Below are positions 9,853-60,348 of a stretch of DNA of 64,000 nt, in pieces. A program made the position numbers and the translations under genes. The notes under the pieces are model-generated. The model was not told the DNA's origin. It made no database searches and saw only the letters and a program-made list of their open reading frames with translations. The stretch's first letter is position 1. The number at the start of each line of letters is the position of its first letter. The stretch lies in IMG/VR virus record IMGVR_UViG_3300017716_001697, positions 160,001-224,000 of that record, one strand, 5' to 3'. The DNA comes from a virus. Its lineage: Duplodnaviria > Caudoviricetes.

Positions 9853-10247
9853 GCAATGTAAAGATGATATGGGTAACTTTCCAGAAAGAAGGTATCCATA
9901 AATATCCGGCCGCATTAACTGACCCAAATCTAAATAAGGGTACAGGCGGGCCTGATAGTTGGCTTGATGTTAGCTTTCTGGGCTATCCACATAGACACAT
10001 GTTTAAATTTAAAGTGTGGATAGCAGTTACGCACGATGATCGTGATATTGAATTTATTCAGTTTAAACGGTGGCTTGAGAATTTATATACACAGTCTATT
10101 CTTGAGTTAGATTATAAGAGCTGTGAAATGATGAGTAACGACTTGTATGATGCAATATCTAAAGAATATCCTAACAGGGAAATTTGGATTGAAGTATCCG
10201 AAGACGGAGAAAATGGTTCATACACAGAGTATAGCACCGGTATTTGA
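9849..10247 (+). CDS. queD: QueD-like 6-carboxytetrahydropterin synthase
   Basis: T-fold size (132 aa), HRH metal motif, DIEF, SCE; context with queE and TGT-like gene. Confidence 0.7.
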   Translation: MSNVKMIWVTFQKEGIHKYPAALTDPNLNKGTGGPDSWLDVSFLGYPHRHMFKFKVWIAVTHDDRDIEFIQFKRWLENLYTQSILELDYKSCEMMSNDLYDAISKEYPNREIWIEVSEDGENGSYTEYSTGI

Positions 10248-10428
10248 TCCTAGATACAAGGCCGTGGTATTTGTTCCACCCAGTGATACTCCGTATTATG
10301 AAAGAGTAGACTGGGTGAGCAATAATACGTCGACTCGCATGGTGGATGTTAAATTCGAAAATCACGGAATGTATATAGCATTTGAAGACGAAAACGATGC
10401 ACTAATTTTTAAGATAAAATTCCTATGA
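10213..10428 (+). CDS. FKLRW-family small protein
   Basis: Ends FEDENDALIFKIKFL; ATG 10213 after GGAG. Confidence 0.6.
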   Translation: MVHTQSIAPVFDPRYKAVVFVPPSDTPYYERVDWVSNNTSTRMVDVKFENHGMYIAFEDENDALIFKIKFL

Positions 10429-52566: not shown

Positions 52567-52746
52567 GATACGGTATGATTTGTCCGAAATGTGATACACT
52601 GATGGGTGCAATGGGGTATGGTGATGAACGGTGTCCTGCTTGTGGACACACATCATATTCTGAATCTGATGAAGAATTTAATCTTCGCATATACGGTACA
52701 ACATTCCGTGAAGGCGAAGATATTGACACTGAACAAAGAGAATAAT

Positions 52747-53940
52747 ATGGAAATCGAAAATGTAAAAATGTGGGTAGGTGATATGGAAGTAGAGCAAGCA
52801 GCTCTATCCCAAATCCTAAACATTTCCCAACTACCTATCCTTGCTGGACACATGGCTATCATGCCAGACGTACACATGGGTAAAGGTGCCACTGTGGGTT
52901 CTGTTATCCCTACACGTTCTGCAATTATTCCTGCGGCTGTGGGTGTGGATATCGGCTGTGGTATGATTGCAGCAATGACCAACCTTACTGCCGATGATCT
53001 TCCTGACTCATTGTTTTCGTTGCGTAATGCAATTGAAAAGGTAGTACCTGTAGGATTCAACGAACACGCAAAGGGCATCCCTTCTGTATCGGGACCTTAC
53101 GCAGATATCCTGCGCAAGAATTTGCACAAGACAATGGATCAATGGGATCACTTGGCAATGAAGCAGCACCTTGGTCGTGCTGACGAAAAGCGCATTGCTC
53201 GCCAAATCGGTACGCTAGGTGGTGGTAACCACTTTATCGAAATCTGTCTCGATACATCTAACCGTGTGTGGATTATGTTACACAGTGGTTCACGCGGTAT
53301 CGGCAATCAAATCGGCACTGTTGCAATCGAAATGGCTAAAGAACAGGCTGCTAAACGTGCATGGGGTCTCCCTGATGCTGATCTTGCATGGCTGGACGAA
53401 GGCACAACCGAATTCGATGCATACATTGAGGCAATGCATTGGGCACAGGACTATGCAAAATTCAACCGCGATACAATGCTGAATTTGGTTATTTCTGCAA
53501 TGAAGGTAAAGTTTCCTACAATGAAGATTGTTGGCGAAGTTGTAAACTGCCACCATAATTTTACAAGCGTGGAAGAGCACTTCAATGAAAAGATCTGGGT
53601 GACACGTAAGGGTGCAGTTTCTGCGCAGTATGGGCAAATGGGTATTATTCCCGGCTCAATGGGTGCAAAGTCATTCATTGTTCGCGGTAAAGGTAATCCT
53701 GATTCCTACTGCTCGTGTTCGCATGGTGCTGGTCGTAAGATGAGCCGCAACCAAGCTAAGAAGTTGTTCACATCACTTGATCTAGAACAACAAACAGCCG
53801 GTGTTGAGTGCCGTAAGGATGCAGACGTAGTTGATGAAATTCCGGGTGCATATAAGGATATTGATCAGGTAATGGCAGCGCAGGCTGATTTGGTTGATAT
53901 TGTACACACGTTGAAGCAAGTTCTTTGTATTAAGGGGTAA
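52747..53940 (+). CDS. rtcB: RtcB RNA 3'-phosphate/5'-OH ligase
   Basis: MPDVH, AVGVDIGCG, GTLGGGNHF, LHSGSRG, HHNF, PGSMG, SCSHGAGR, DEIPGAYK; likely start ATG 52747. Confidence 0.97.
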   Translation: MEIENVKMWVGDMEVEQAALSQILNISQLPILAGHMAIMPDVHMGKGATVGSVIPTRSAIIPAAVGVDIGCGMIAAMTNLTADDLPDSLFSLRNAIEKVVPVGFNEHAKGIPSVSGPYADILRKNLHKTMDQWDHLAMKQHLGRADEKRIARQIGTLGGGNHFIEICLDTSNRVWIMLHSGSRGIGNQIGTVAIEMAKEQAAKRAWGLPDADLAWLDEGTTEFDAYIEAMHWAQDYAKFNRDTMLNLVISAMKVKFPTMKIVGEVVNCHHNFTSVEEHFNEKIWVTRKGAVSAQYGQMGIIPGSMGAKSFIVRGKGNPDSYCSCSHGAGRKMSRNQAKKLFTSLDLEQQTAGVECRKDADVVDEIPGAYKDIDQVMAAQADLVDIVHTLKQVLCIKG

Positions 53941-53942
53941 TC

Positions 53943-54995
53943 ATGGGATCATGGAACGGAACATGTGCAGTATCTAACCTGCACGTACGAAGCGGGCAAG
54001 AGGTAGCAGTATTCATGCTGCTCGAAAACAAAAGATCAAAATCCTTCTGTTATGGTAATGCATTGTACGATGTATGCCCGTTACCATTCTATGGCAAGTA
54101 TAATGATTACGGTGCAGTAGAAGACTGCCAAGGCCCGGTGTTGCCCATTGTGGTTGACGAAATCAAGCGCCAGCTGTACGAATTTGGCCAAGGCCCGAAC
54201 AGTAGCCACGACATGGTAGTACGCAGGGCCGATTTTGACATTGATCTGTTATTTGAAGCCGACCACGAAGATCGTCTCGGTATTCAATATACACCCTTCT
54301 TCGACGAAGATGATTATGATCTTCGCGAATTGCGTAAAGACGGTGAAAAAGATCAACTTACACCAGATCAGCAATTCGAGCTTGACAGACTAGCCAACAA
54401 ACTCAAACAGGTAGATACATTTAGACGTGTTACACACGTAATTATTCATGGTGATATTTTCCGTGATATCATGAATAAATATTACATCGATGAATATGTT
54501 GGTGACAGCAAAGGTACAACAGGTTATGGAAATAACTATAACCGTGTATTCTTTAAGGATATTCTTGCATCTATTCCTGCATACATCGATGCCTGCAAGT
54601 CTGAAGCGGCAAGAATTAATGCTATGACTGACCCGCATGAACAATGGGCAGAACGAAACATTCCTAAGGATGAATGGAAGAATCCTAATCTTGCAGCAAG
54701 ATGGCTAAACAGCTTCAGTAATAGCAGCGAAGGATTCGGGCTTCTTCGTGTCGACGAATACATTCGCGAATATAAGAATGACGGCCGGTGGGACGAGCTG
54801 ACAGACTTTGTTACAGAAGCGTTAAAGGGTGCATGGGTAAATAGATATATGTCATCCATCCGTAAGCTGTGGTCGAAGCAGACAGGTGCCGGCTCTCAGA
54901 ATGATGAACATGATGGATACAATATCCTGATCCAATCAATGACAGACGTATTGGCGGCCGAGAAGAAGGCGTGGGATGACGAGAACGGGGAGTAG
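53943..54995 (+). CDS. Hypothetical protein
   Basis: 350 aa, directly coupled to rtcB. Confidence 0.75.
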   Translation: MGSWNGTCAVSNLHVRSGQEVAVFMLLENKRSKSFCYGNALYDVCPLPFYGKYNDYGAVEDCQGPVLPIVVDEIKRQLYEFGQGPNSSHDMVVRRADFDIDLLFEADHEDRLGIQYTPFFDEDDYDLRELRKDGEKDQLTPDQQFELDRLANKLKQVDTFRRVTHVIIHGDIFRDIMNKYYIDEYVGDSKGTTGYGNNYNRVFFKDILASIPAYIDACKSEAARINAMTDPHEQWAERNIPKDEWKNPNLAARWLNSFSNSSEGFGLLRVDEYIREYKNDGRWDELTDFVTEALKGAWVNRYMSSIRKLWSKQTGAGSQNDEHDGYNILIQSMTDVLAAEKKAWDDENGE

Positions 54996-57663: not shown

Positions 57664-58290
57664 ATGATATGCGAATACGGATGTAATGGGGAGGCCAATC
57701 ATCAATTACTAAACGGTAAATGGTGTTGCAGTAAACGGCCCGCTGGTTGCAAGGTGCTAAAGGCAGTTAACTCGGCAGGTCTGAAGAAAGCGCATAGTGA
57801 GGGTAGGGGCGGATATATTTACAAAGATCTATCTGACGAAACCAAAGCCCGAATGAATTGGGCTAAGGGTAAGACTATTACACCCGATAGCGAAATATTT
57901 ACAGAAAATAGCACATACTCTAACGAGATGGTTAAACATAGAATTGTTAAAGGTGATCTATTAGAATACAAATGCTCTAATCCGAAATGTGGAATAACCG
58001 AATGGTGCGACGAATCTATTGTGTTAGATTTGGATCATATAAATGGTAACAACACAGATAACAGATTATCTAATTTACGATACTTATGCCCAAATTGCCA
58101 TTCTCAGACAGACACATACAAGGGCAGAAATAAGAATACAGGTAAGTTGAAAGTAACCGACACTGAATTGTTGGCAGCATATAAGGAATGCAATAATATT
58201 AGGCAAGCATTAATCAGCGTAGGAATTGCTGCAAAGGGTGGCAATTATGAAAGATTAAAAAAATTAATTAGCAAAACGCTTGCCCTATAG
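57664..58290 (+). CDS. Free-standing HNH endonuclease (homing-type)
   Basis: YKCSNPKC, LDLDHINGNNTDNRLSNLRYLCPNCHS; GATAAATA at 57637 and AGGAG RBS. Confidence 0.9.
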   Translation: MICEYGCNGEANHQLLNGKWCCSKRPAGCKVLKAVNSAGLKKAHSEGRGGYIYKDLSDETKARMNWAKGKTITPDSEIFTENSTYSNEMVKHRIVKGDLLEYKCSNPKCGITEWCDESIVLDLDHINGNNTDNRLSNLRYLCPNCHSQTDTYKGRNKNTGKLKVTDTELLAAYKECNNIRQALISVGIAAKGGNYERLKKLISKTLAL

Positions 58291-58308
58291 CTAAATATGT
58301 TGTATAAT
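58280..58308 (+). promoter_or_regulatory. Promoter for tRNA/ncRNA cluster
   Basis: TTGCCC-N17-TATAAT, with a CTAAATA late-like motif in the spacer. Confidence 0.6.
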
Positions 58309-58358
58309 TAATGCATAGCAGCTGATTACAGTAGCTTGTAGAGATCATTAATAAATTA

Positions 58359-58648
58359 GCGGGTATGGAGAAATTGGTAAACTCACCAGACTTAGAGAAA
58401 TAAAATTTGAGTGCCCGGTCGGAAACGATCGGAGTAGAACCTGTCAAATTCGGCGAACACTTTAACATGTCAACGCCGAGCGAAGCCCGAAAGGGAACGT
58501 GTAGAGACTTGACGGCAGGTACCTAACGCAGAAATGCTACGGTAAAGACAAAGTCCAGACTATCAAACCGAGAGGGTAGCGAAAGCTATAGTAGTAAGAA
58601 AATCTGGCGCCGCAAGGCTTGACGGTTCAAGTCCGTCTACCCGCACCA
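58359..58648 (+). tRNA. tRNA-Leu(UAA), intron-split (exons 58359-58393 and 58599-58648)
   Basis: Acceptor GCGGGTA/TACCCGC; joined exons give CCAGA-CT-TAA-AA-TCTGG; long variable arm; GACGG-TTCAAGT-CCGTC; ACCA. Confidence 0.93.
58394..58598 (+). mobile_element. Group I intron (IC3-like), 205 nt, no ORF
   Basis: P1 ACUU|AGA:UUUGAGU with U-G at splice site; P2 GAAA hairpin; P3 ACCUGUC/GGCAGGU; P4 UUCGGCG/CGCCGAG; P7 G-A-GACUU/AAGUC-C; P8; P9; terminal G. Confidence 0.93.
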
Positions 58649-58743
58649 TATTAGGATACATTGTGCAGACGCGGTAGCTAGCCCAAAAGGGACTTTACTA
58701 GCGACAATGGTGAATGCAGGTACAACAGTGTATCCCAATATGG
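58646..58743 (+). ncRNA. Helix-closed RNA module H1
   Basis: CCATATTAGGATACATTGT / ACAGTGTATCCCAATATGG (18/19 paired). Confidence 0.6.
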
Positions 58744-58744
58744 T

Positions 58745-58927
58745 GCCATATTAAAACGCATAAATGCATTAGTTGCATTGGTAATCTGAATGACGTGGAT
58801 AGCTGCATCTTACCCACTGTCAAACAGAGGACATTGCAGGTGATAGCAAATGTAATGGTTTACAGCTAGGCGATTAGAGTCTGGTAGGTGGGTTCAACTC
58901 CTGCTAATGCGGTTTAACATGGCACCA
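58745..58927 (+). ncRNA. Helix-closed RNA module H2 with T-arm and ACCA end
   Basis: GCCATATTAAAACGCAT / ATGCGGTTTAACATGGC then ACCA; GTGGG-TTCAACT-CCTGC at 58888-58904. Confidence 0.6.
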
Positions 58928-59017
58928 TATCGAAGTACATTAACTGAGTACAAGGCTCAGCGTGCGAATTTTAGTAACTAAGCCTCAAGAGGAAGCTATA
59001 GTGTACTTCGATATGGT
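58924..59017 (+). ncRNA. Helix-closed RNA module H3
   Basis: ACCATATCGAAGTACATTA / TAGTGTACTTCGATATGGT; internal hairpins CTGAG/CTCAG, TTAG/CTAA, CCTC/GAGG. Confidence 0.65.
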
Positions 59018-59031
59018 ATAATGTAGACGTA

Positions 59032-59132
59032 TATTGTAACATACACGGAAGGTAATTGGTCCGTGAAACTCGACTGTGGTGTAATGGTAGCACTCAAAAG
59101 TTCCTGGTTCGAATCCAGGCCCGCAATAACCA
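59032..59132 (+). ncRNA. Anticodon-less tRNA-like element
   Basis: D-arm GTGT-AATGGTA-GCAC, T-arm CCTGG-TTCGAAT-CCAGG only 9 nt later, TATTGT/GCAATA helix then ACCA. Confidence 0.45.
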
Positions 59133-59138
59133 AAGGGG

Positions 59139-59182
59139 GTTCGGCACAACGAGTAGGAGAGATGGTTCGATTCCGTCCGAAT
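59139..59182 (+). pseudogene. tRNA remnant (T-arm plus short helix)
   Basis: GATGG-TTCGATT-CCGTC with GTTCG/CGAAT flanks; no D or anticodon arm. Confidence 0.35.
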
Positions 59183-59190
59183 AGAGTTTG

Positions 59191-59269
59191 CATATTAGAG
59201 GGCATTATGCTTCTATTTAAAAAGGGAGCCTGTGCTGGCACATTGGCACATCTAATGTCCTCTAATATG
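59191..59269 (+). ncRNA. Helix-closed RNA module H4
   Basis: CATATTAGAGGGCATTA / TAATGTCCTCTAATATG (17 bp incl. 1 G-U). Confidence 0.6.
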
Positions 59270-59423
59270 ATGCAGGTAGGCAAATGTGGTAAAGCCGCCG
59301 GTTCGGTCCGGTGAGAGATATGTTGAAGTCTTACATGATGACGGGTAGCTGGGTCGACACAGTCCGTACAGTGGCAGGAGCGATATATTTCGTTTATGGG
59401 TTCGATTCCCATCTTGTATCCCA
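59269..59423 (+). ncRNA. tRNA-like RNA with 83-nt variable-arm insertion
   Basis: Acceptor (G)ATGCAGG/CTTGTAT(C)+CCA, D-arm GGC/GCC, GCCGG-TTCGGT-CCGGT arm, T-arm ATGGG-TTCGATT-CCCAT. Confidence 0.7.
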
Positions 59424-59428
59424 GAATA

Positions 59429-59628
59429 GCCAGGGTAGCTCAGTCAGGCACGAAACTTAAAGGGAAGATGTTGCAACATTCAACGGAGAGAAGTAATGAC
59501 TTAGGAAGGTTAAGTAGTAAGCATCTTATGATACGCGGTGTAAGGTGTGTAGGTGATAGCCAACTATTAAGTAGAGCAACCAGTATCTAACTGGAAGGTC
59601 GTTGGTTCAATTCCATCCGCTGGCACCA
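59429..59628 (+). ncRNA. tRNA-like RNA with ~123-nt D-loop insertion
   Basis: GCCAGGG/CGCTGGC+ACCA, D-stem GCTC/GAGC 132 nt apart, CCAG-TATCTAA-CTGG, GTTGG-TTCAATT-CCATC. Confidence 0.72.
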
Positions 59629-59634
59629 AATTAT

Positions 59635-59749
59635 GCGATGATAGCTTCAGGTTGGTAGAGCGCGTCATTGAATGCCCTATTTATTCTACGTTATGGTATA
59701 TAGGCGAGTGGTCAGGACGAGGTCGCAGGTTCAACGCCTGCTCATTGTA
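59635..59749 (+). ncRNA. tRNA-like RNA with ~40-nt anticodon-loop insertion
   Basis: GCGATGA/TCATTGT, D-arm GCTT/GAGC, CGTC/GACG enclosing 49 nt, AGGTC, GCAGG-TTCAACG-CCTGC; no adjacent CCA. Confidence 0.68.
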
Positions 59750-59753
59750 TAAG

Positions 59754-59861
59754 CCATATGAGAATACACTGTGGAGAGCACTGCGTATGACTGGGAAGGT
59801 TTGAACCCGACTCACATCGTCACTCGGTATCCTGCGGCCGCAACAGTGTATTCCCATATGG
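59754..59861 (+). ncRNA. Helix-closed RNA module H5
   Basis: CCATATGAGAATACACTGT / ACAGTGTATTCCCATATGG (18/19). Confidence 0.65.
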
Positions 59862-59863
59862 TA

Positions 59864-60180
59864 CGAAGGGTAGAAGATGATATCAAAGGCTATTTCCTTT
59901 TTTGATAGACGAAACGCTGTGGCCACGGTGTTAGACTACTTATTGGTTAACCATTGTACCGCCAGATTCCGAAGCCTGTAATCAGGCCTGCCAAACAGTA
60001 AATTGGAGTGTGGGAGGACGCACTTAAAACCATCTCCCGCAGGGTCACCATGTGTTATGAGCGGTGATAGTTTAGCGAACCGGAGTCCTAAAAACCGGAA
60101 GGGTAAAGCAAACTTACCTACAAGTAGCGAAAGGTCTGCTATAGCAGTCAAGCCATCCTAGTCTGGAAAACTAGGGTGCA
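59864..60180 (+). ncRNA. Candidate ~320-nt multi-hairpin RNA
   Basis: No + strand ORF; hairpins TATCAA/TTGATA, GCCTG/CAGGC, TGTGGGAG/CTCCCGCA, TCACC/GGTGA, CCGG/CCGG, GGTAA/TTACC, CCTAGT/ACTAGG. Confidence 0.45.
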
Positions 60181-60348
60181 TTTATTTTAGAAAGATATCC
60201 ATATGTACACTTATGCATGGACCATATTTGGTTATTACGGTGGACCTACTATGACAACAAATTATCAACAACACTGTTCGTGGTACACTGTTGACGATTT
60301 TGGTGATCTCGTACCTGCCACATACAAAATGGATTATTTGGAGACAAC

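Follow-up and report, generated by a model that had tools for sequence, protein, structure and literature searches.

tRNA-like handles are known from mitochondrial tRNA punctuation, from the mascRNA of MALAT1 and from the tRNA-like/pre-miRNA units of murid herpesvirus 68. A bacterial Y RNA (YrlA), known with Ro/Rsr, often adjoins rtcB. An engineered "tRNA scaffold" for recombinant RNA is reportedly due to Ponchon and Dardel in 2007. Pseudogenes of tRNAs occur in the tRNA arrays of jumbo phages (e.g., XacN1; PMC5852040). Many phages encode the ligase RtcB as a repair enzyme (PMC7824862); the same paper mentions TROVE with a tRNA-like partner.

We analyzed a tRNA-shaped element, E7, in a 64,000-nt stretch of phage DNA (the window). 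E7 shares with class I tRNAs (RF00005) the 7-bp acceptor, a D arm with GG, a 5-nt variable loop, a 5-bp T stem and a TTCAANN loop. It differs from them in having ~48 nt in place of the 7-nt anticodon loop, a pyrimidine at position 37, no CCA, a paired discriminator and no match to RF00005. The likeness to tRNA-like handles lies in a non-decoding tRNA shape beside structured RNA in one transcript, of which the acceptor/T half alone need be intact. However, the helix of leader and trailer over the discriminator is atypical of substrates of RNase P or RNase Z, of which E7 is a candidate. YrlA is likewise a tRNA-mimicking, non-coding RNA in an RtcB neighborhood, but its topology is the opposite (the YrlA ends lie in the Ro-binding stem). 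E7 has no Rfam match, and no TROVE gene (PF05731) was identified in the phage genome. In the engineered scaffold a foreign RNA likewise replaces the anticodon loop of an otherwise intact body, but that system is man-made and the segment in E7 lacks any sign of selected structure. Like the jumbo-phage pseudogenes, E7 is a defective copy among many functional tRNAs, although it keeps nearly all of its stems and is located in a modular non-coding operon, off the main tRNA block. The most probable reading is that E7 belongs to a small-RNA operon as a non-decoding part, or as a dead copy, and does not represent a new kind of intron.

The phage genome and its putative RNA operon

The source record is a complete genome of 364,576 bp with terminal repeats, of which the window represents bases 160001-224000. 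Of its 45 standard tRNA genes and one tmRNA gene, most lie far from the window. Standard genes for tRNA-Thr(GGT) (genome position 41464), tRNA-Phe(GAA) and tRNA-Ile(GAT) are present elsewhere in the genome.

About 1.9 kb without a credible ORF separate the end of a gene for an HNH endonuclease (58290) from the next plausible gene (60349). No ORF in 58290-60340 has any family match, and no coding signal was identified using Pfam, PHROG and tblastn. This region has the form of an RNA operon, with a promoter-like site, an intron-bearing tRNA-Leu, tRNA look-alikes alternating with stem-closed hairpins, and a terminator (Table 1). Seven T-arm-like motifs are present, as are four long hairpins with closing stems of the type CCATAT...ATATGG. 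E5, E6 and E7 abut, separated by spacers of 5 and 6 nt; E7 is the last of the three and the hairpin HD lies 4 nt 3' of it.

The flanks of another tRNA look-alike (~58765-58912) pair over 33 nt (58729-58761 with 58907-58939, 82%). Thus, this look-alike is itself the cargo of a CCATAT-type closing helix. In a related phage (L097, 4787-5065), tRNA-Thr(UGU) is interrupted at 34/35 by a 204-nt group I intron. The intron is 75% identical over 160 nt to that of the tRNA-Leu in the window, and thus moves between tRNA isotypes.

Directly 3' of rtcB is a gene for a 350-aa protein (53943-54995) for which Pfam, PDB and Atlas contain no relative; its match to phrog_5960, a family without an assigned function, is limited to the N-terminal 120 residues. 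Several related loci (L083, L087, L089, L091) also have a homologue near rtcB. The gene was considered as a candidate splicing endonuclease and rejected, as PDB, Pfam and Atlas provided no lead.

Table 1. Features of the RNA operon and of E7, with the upstream rtcB gene (positions are those of the window).
Feature	Position	Strand	Basis and remarks
RtcB gene	52606-53940		PF01139, 427 bits; 5.7 kb upstream of E7
Promoter-like site TTGCCC-17-TATAAT	58280-58308	+	Consensus scan; upstream of intron-bearing tRNA-Leu; putative operon start
tRNA-Leu(UAA) with 205-nt group I intron	58359-58648		~1.1-1.3 kb upstream of E7
E5, tRNA look-alike	59270-59423
E6, tRNA look-alike, large D-loop insert	59429-59628	+	ARAGORN -ps90, sequence; CCA end 6 nt before E7
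E7, tRNA-shaped element under study, 115 nt	59635-59749	+	Acceptor nucleotide 1 to discriminator; sequence, ARAGORN, model R1
E7 leader TTAT	59631-59634	+	Pairs with ATAA 59749-59752, discriminator included; MFE fold in context
E7 acceptor GCGATGA / TCATTGT	59635-59641 / 59742-59748	+	7 bp, with G1.U72 and G3.U70 wobbles
E7 D stem GCTT/GAGC	59644-59647 / 59658-59661	+	GG in D loop
E7 anticodon stem CGTC/GACG	59663-59666 / 59716-59719	+
E7 expanded anticodon arm	59663-59719	+	CGTC/GACG, then TTGA/TCAG, GC/GT, CCTAT/ATAGG and TAT/GTA pairs; RNAfold
E7 insert, 40 nt, inside anticodon	59671-59710	+	ARAGORN intron call "cattg-[40 nt]-gtcag"
E7 T arm GCAGG-TTCAACG-CCTGC, no mismatch	59725-59741	+	Followed by acceptor strand to 59748 and discriminator A 59749
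Hairpin HD, 19-bp closing stem CCATATG...CATATGG	59754-59861	+	Inverted repeat I4, 95% complementary; context fold
Terminator-like hairpin and T-run	60154-60187	+	Scan; putative operon end

tRNA ancestry of E7

E7 descends from a class I tRNA. In-silico deletion of the insert results in a default-threshold tRNA call by ARAGORN at every junction tried; a control of reversed phage DNA (2.6 Mb) gave 0 calls at this threshold. We also built a covariance model from E7 alone (R1), in which the insert is skipped via a local end state. R1 matches canonical phage tRNAs at 30-45 bits (E ~1e-9), the best being tRNA-Thr(GGU) at 45.5 bits. Both results support the original description of a tRNA-derived element with a foreign segment in its anticodon loop.

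Intact E7 is not called by ARAGORN at default settings, and a 1.7-kb search with RF00005 (gathering threshold 29 bits) left 59635-59749 unmatched even at E <= 10. For ARAGORN to report it, introns must be permitted and the cutoff reduced to 90% (-ps90). The -ps90 call is not significant by itself because the reversed-sequence control yields 200 insert calls vs. 249 in real DNA.

Features at odds with a functional tRNA

The acceptor and T arm form 12 of 12 pairs (two are G.U), and the lesions lie in the D and anticodon arms. In all, 20 of 21 stem pairs form, and U8, the T loop and the D-loop GG are intact. The variable loop is AGGTC (5 nt). The sequence and the pairs CGTC/GACG, TTGA/TCAG and CCTAT/ATAGG are present as reported in the initial annotation. 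Its statement that all other arms are well formed holds only approximately: the D arm is irregular (it requires either a bulged U or a U.G pair together with C14), A31 and G39 are mismatched, CCA is lacking and the acceptor helix is extended by 4 bp.

Discriminator A73 is followed by TAAG and then by the next hairpin; CCA is encoded by 44 of the 45 standard tRNAs. A gene for a CCA-adding enzyme was not found in the phage genome. With its extension past the discriminator, the acceptor helix has 11 bp in total and ends one base before HD. The corresponding extension is 0-2 bp in all 45 standard tRNAs, none of which reaches 3 bp. Between the two strands of the anticodon stem are ~48 nt, where a 7-nt loop with U33 and a purine at 37 is expected. 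The boundary of the insert slides by 1 nt (59670-59709 is equivalent) because of a flanking G. As the anticodon loop is split by ~40 nt, E7 cannot read codons; it cannot decode.

G3.U70 (59637/59746) and A73 (59749) are the main identity elements for alanyl-tRNA synthetase, an enzyme that needs no anticodon. They may be present in E7 by chance and, without CCA, may be irrelevant.

The 5' side of the loop had been read as that of tRNA-Phe, with insertion near 37/38. This is one of three readings. ARAGORN reports Thr(GGU) with a 40-nt insert at U33/G34 or G34/G35, and if the junction is slid, Ile(GAU) or Phe(GAA) is equally possible. Whichever of the seven possible excision junctions is used, position 37, a purine in tRNAs, becomes C or U, in agreement with the earlier remark that the 3' side does not cleanly restore a loop. 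Assignment of the isotype from the body outside the loop was tried and is ambiguous (identity 0.69 to Pro(UGG), 0.65 to Thr(GGU) and 0.65 to Met tRNA).

The initial annotation described the insert region as a ~49-nt hairpin, but it is no more stable than expected by chance. The arm (59663-59719) folds at -10.8 kcal/mol vs. -12.4 +/- 2.6 with shuffled inserts in the same flanks (z = +0.6), and the fold of the whole element has z = -0.02. A selected hairpin in the insert was thus rejected; the insert folds as any sequence of like composition would. Matches of the insert within the phage genome occur at chance level, with no antisense target above chance. The insert was also considered as a relic of a CCATAT closing stem. 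The similarity, 13 of 15 positions to one 3' strand (p ~0.04, uncorrected), is a weak lead.

E7 in related phages

No orthologue of E7 was found by blastn against INPHARED phages, in loci around homologues of the HNH and RtcB genes, or by BLAST and R1 in five related records, three complete genomes among them. Full-length R1 searches of G001, G002 and G005 (950 kb) and of ~170 other loci recovered normal-length tRNAs and three unrelated insert-bearing ones, and no E7. Exact-pattern scans of viral, metagenome and genome collections also lacked an orthologue: the D-arm 18-mer of E7 has three matches, all in coding DNA, and the sole match in the genome collection is the 3' end of an unrelated tRNA or tmRNA. 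Two metagenome scans using conserved neighboring motifs were empty, and the downstream 69-aa gene, used as a search anchor, has no relatives. With an orthologue found nowhere, E7 is an orphan that shows neither covariation nor any direct sign of selection. On the basis of the sequences searched, we consider it specific to one lineage. The initial annotation had proposed that degeneration in relatives, together with absence from RNA-seq, would count against its reading; E7 is absent altogether from the sole syntenic relative and from all other records searched.

The only syntenic relative is G001 (IMG/VR 3300045972_000138), with an RtcB that is 86% identical. Its array includes a tRNA-Leu that lacks the intron and a standard tRNA-Thr(UGU). 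G001 keeps the promoter, one hairpin (HB) and the terminator, and encodes other modules at the place of E7, with no counterpart of E5, E6 or E7. HB (58921-59017) is 87% identical to its G001 counterpart (L161 1501-1596), and its ~60-nt interior is nearly invariant. The closing stem shows compensatory changes, CCATATCGAAGTACA here vs. CCATATTAGAATGCA in G001. HB matches no Rfam family and is probably a functional RNA. A tail hairpin (59967-59993, TTCCGAAGCCTGTAATCAGGCCTG) is also conserved in G001 (L161 2426-2452), with a compensatory change from C-G to T-A, and the terminator region (60150-60196) is 87.5% identical. Between HB and the tail of G001, a CCATAT hairpin is immediately preceded by a 70-nt tRNA look-alike whose anticodon arm is truncated. 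This look-alike reaches 10.4 bits with R1 in an unfiltered search.

In G002 (IMG/VR 3300045971_000577), a CCA-ended look-alike with a 70-nt insert is encoded on the minus strand (253367-253513), in a non-coding stretch after tRNA-Leu. In this clade, sequences that follow tRNA-Leu seem to form a hot spot for elements of this kind.

Insert-bearing tRNAs elsewhere in phage DNA

Using ARAGORN at default settings on 2.6 Mb of phage DNA, we identified inserts of at least 15 nt in 17 of 1101 tRNA calls (~1.5%), and none in the reversed control. The phage genome accounts for 4 of these among 49 calls, compared with 13 of 1052 elsewhere (Fisher p = 0.005), a count that leaves out E6 and E7. This enrichment, and the packing of look-alikes in the ORF-free operon, support the original suggestion that the clustering is not random. 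The analogous inserts have no common motif, are mostly of ordinary stability (z -2.4 to +1.0) and bear no resemblance to group I introns.

Two look-alikes of the phage genome lie outside the window. One (genome positions 10179-10275) has a 26-nt insert in the anticodon region; the other (265239-265400) has an 84-nt insert in that region, a CCA end and z = -2.3 relative to shuffles.

In unrelated phage contigs, removal of the insert restores a perfect loop in two cases. A tRNA-Asn(GUU) (L022, 7074-7175) has a 30-nt insert at 33/34 (CT, 30 nt, GTTAA). A tRNA-Leu(UAA) (L004, 6631-6786) beside an HNH homologue has a 71-nt insert at 34/35 and a CCA end. Both inserts are too short for group I introns and dissimilar to them. 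These two tRNAs are better intron candidates than E7.

In another contig (L062, 1004-1185), ARAGORN reports a tRNA-Arg whose 109-nt insert itself has acceptor-like ends as well as D and T arms. Either one tRNA is nested within another, or two neighboring genes have acceptor stems that resemble each other.

Short anticodon-loop inserts in phage tRNAs were not the subject of any paper retrieved in a literature search. If the inserts are idle, genome annotation should allow for relics of this type, as they escape standard tRNA finders.

Possible roles of E7

We tentatively favor (probability about 0.45) a reading in which E7 is a non-decoding, tRNA-derived module of the ~1.9-kb RNA operon that retains its insert and, if it is kept, is kept as a processing or stabilizing handle. 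E7 would be transcribed within the operon and the insert would stay in its RNA. Selection, if any, would act on the minihelix of acceptor and T arm and on the D/T elbow, the part recognized by RNase P, RNase Z and other tRNA-handling enzymes. E7 could then be a putative processing or stabilizing handle for its neighbors, E6 upstream and HD downstream, in a manner similar to tRNA punctuation. Nothing would then keep the anticodon arm from drifting, with the 40-nt insert as neutral filler rather than a functional hairpin.

The loss of decoding is indicated by the pyrimidine at 37, A31.G39, the D-arm anomaly, the lack of CCA, the genome-unique acceptor extension and the redundancy with standard tRNAs. 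An operon is suggested by the 5-6-nt spacers, the promoter and terminator, the modules conserved in G001 and the lack of coding signal. As expected for a handle, an intact minihelix (12/12 pairs) is located beside other RNA within a single promoter/terminator frame, with E6 6 nt upstream and HD 4 nt downstream. The concentration of lesions in the D and anticodon arms, the inserts of the neighboring look-alikes at three sites off the minihelix, and the truncated arm in G001 all fit this reading. However, the leader-trailer helix over the discriminator would hinder rather than help RNase P and RNase Z, which counts against a handle. The intact acceptor and T arm are not a fair test of what is preferentially kept, because detection itself needs those arms.

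A plain pseudogene is nearly as likely as a non-decoding module, and all of the hard facts fit a young pseudogene equally well. In this case, a duplicated tRNA gene would have been killed by the 40-nt insertion and would now be functionless and decaying. The insertion could derive, for example, from filler DNA left by imprecise repair or from illegitimate recombination in an array rich in homing endonucleases; the HNH endonuclease gene and the intron-bearing tRNA are both ~1.1-1.3 kb upstream. Compared with a functional tRNA, E7 has six or more lesions, and the insert has no more structure than random sequence and a weak resemblance to the 3' strand of a closing stem. E7 carries disabling lesions and is not conserved in relatives (it is absent from G001, G002, G005 and 170-odd other loci), its function would be redundant with that of the standard tRNAs, and further look-alikes that appear decayed occur at genome positions 10179 and 265239. 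Against simple decay, 20 of 21 stem pairs still form, the T loop, D-loop GG and U8 are intact, and E7 is packed at 5-6 nt inside an operon in which other modules are conserved. The genome-unique acceptor extension and the enrichment of insert-bearing look-alikes (p = 0.005) also count against a plain pseudogene.

It is unlikely that the expanded arm is functional cargo, i.e., a decoy or inhibitor of a host tRNA-targeting nuclease or other RNA-binding factor, for which the tRNA body provides processing and stability. Three adjacent look-alikes each have a large insert, at different sites, and keep the acceptor and T arm. The enrichment in the genome and the RNA-repair context provided by RtcB are also consistent with cargo. 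However, the expanded arm is neither conserved nor unusually stable, and there is no antisense target in the phage genome and no Ro/TROVE partner. The decoy for anticodon nucleases put forward in the initial annotation is not supported: E7 has no 7-nt anticodon loop to mimic, so there is nothing for such a nuclease to recognize, and the GAA/GGU triplet is buried in a long irregular helix. An equally doubtful extension is that E5, E6 and E7 are natural "tRNA scaffolds", in which host RNase P and RNase Z would trim and stabilize the displayed segments and the arms would act on host factors such as defense nucleases. Turnover of the cargo between related phages would then be rapid, as suggested by the differing arrays here and in G001.

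We consider it quite improbable that E7 is a true interrupted tRNA, from which the 40 nt are cut by an unidentified endonuclease and the halves joined by the phage RtcB to form tRNA-Thr(GGU). The rtcB gene is near E7, and exact excision of the 40 nt yields the 7-nt loop UUGGUCA and an ARAGORN call of tRNA-Thr. Other phages encode tRNAs with short inserts and a perfect loop on removal, e.g., the L022 Asn and L004 Leu(UAA) genes. In contrast, the product from E7 would have C37, the A31.G39 mismatch, no CCA and a paired discriminator, a tRNA-Thr(GGT) is already encoded in the genome, and RtcB is common in phages as a repair enzyme.

E7 matches no known intron class, and the intron first proposed for it is thus not supported. 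Group I introns of bacterial and phage tRNAs (the tRNA-Leu UAA type) are similar in that the interruption is within the anticodon (33/34 or 34/35) and a gene for an HNH homing endonuclease adjoins the array. However, the insert is 40 nt vs. 205 nt, far under the size of any self-splicing intron, and there is no P1-P9 core and no match to RF00028, which is matched only at 58339-58574, by the tRNA-Leu intron. A U at the end of the 5' exon and a G at the end of the intron are not obtainable together in E7. The insert has no similarity to three related local tRNA introns (p = 0.7-0.9). A group I intron relic was also rejected, as neither this insert nor four other short inserts showed significant similarity. 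The protein-spliced introns of archaea and eukaryotes resemble E7 in being short inserts of the anticodon region, and an RtcB ligase gene is nearby. Their bulge-helix-bulge motif (3 nt/4 bp/3 nt) is absent from E7, which folds as a 1-nt bulge, 4 bp and a 2x2 loop. For a splicing endonuclease of the EndA family (PF01974), a search of the complete 364.6-kb genome at E <= 1 was negative; control genomes do have matches.

Chance likeness to a tRNA, or a piece of a protein-coding gene, can be dismissed: ORFs of 50 aa (+ strand) and 81 aa (- strand) overlap E7 and -ps90 calls are mostly false positives, but these ORFs have no Pfam, PHROG or tblastn relatives, insert-free E7 is called at the default threshold with 0 false positives in the control, and R1 matches tRNAs at E ~1e-9.

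The short inserts in phage tRNAs fit no known splicing route, and if any of them are removed or used, this would be new phage RNA biology. Whether a non-decoding module or a dead copy, E7 illustrates how a tRNA copy in a jumbo phage quits the decoding pool yet keeps the shape of a tRNA. The context is weightier than E7 itself: an operon with tRNA look-alikes and stem-closed hairpins as its modules, the make-up of which varies among close relatives.
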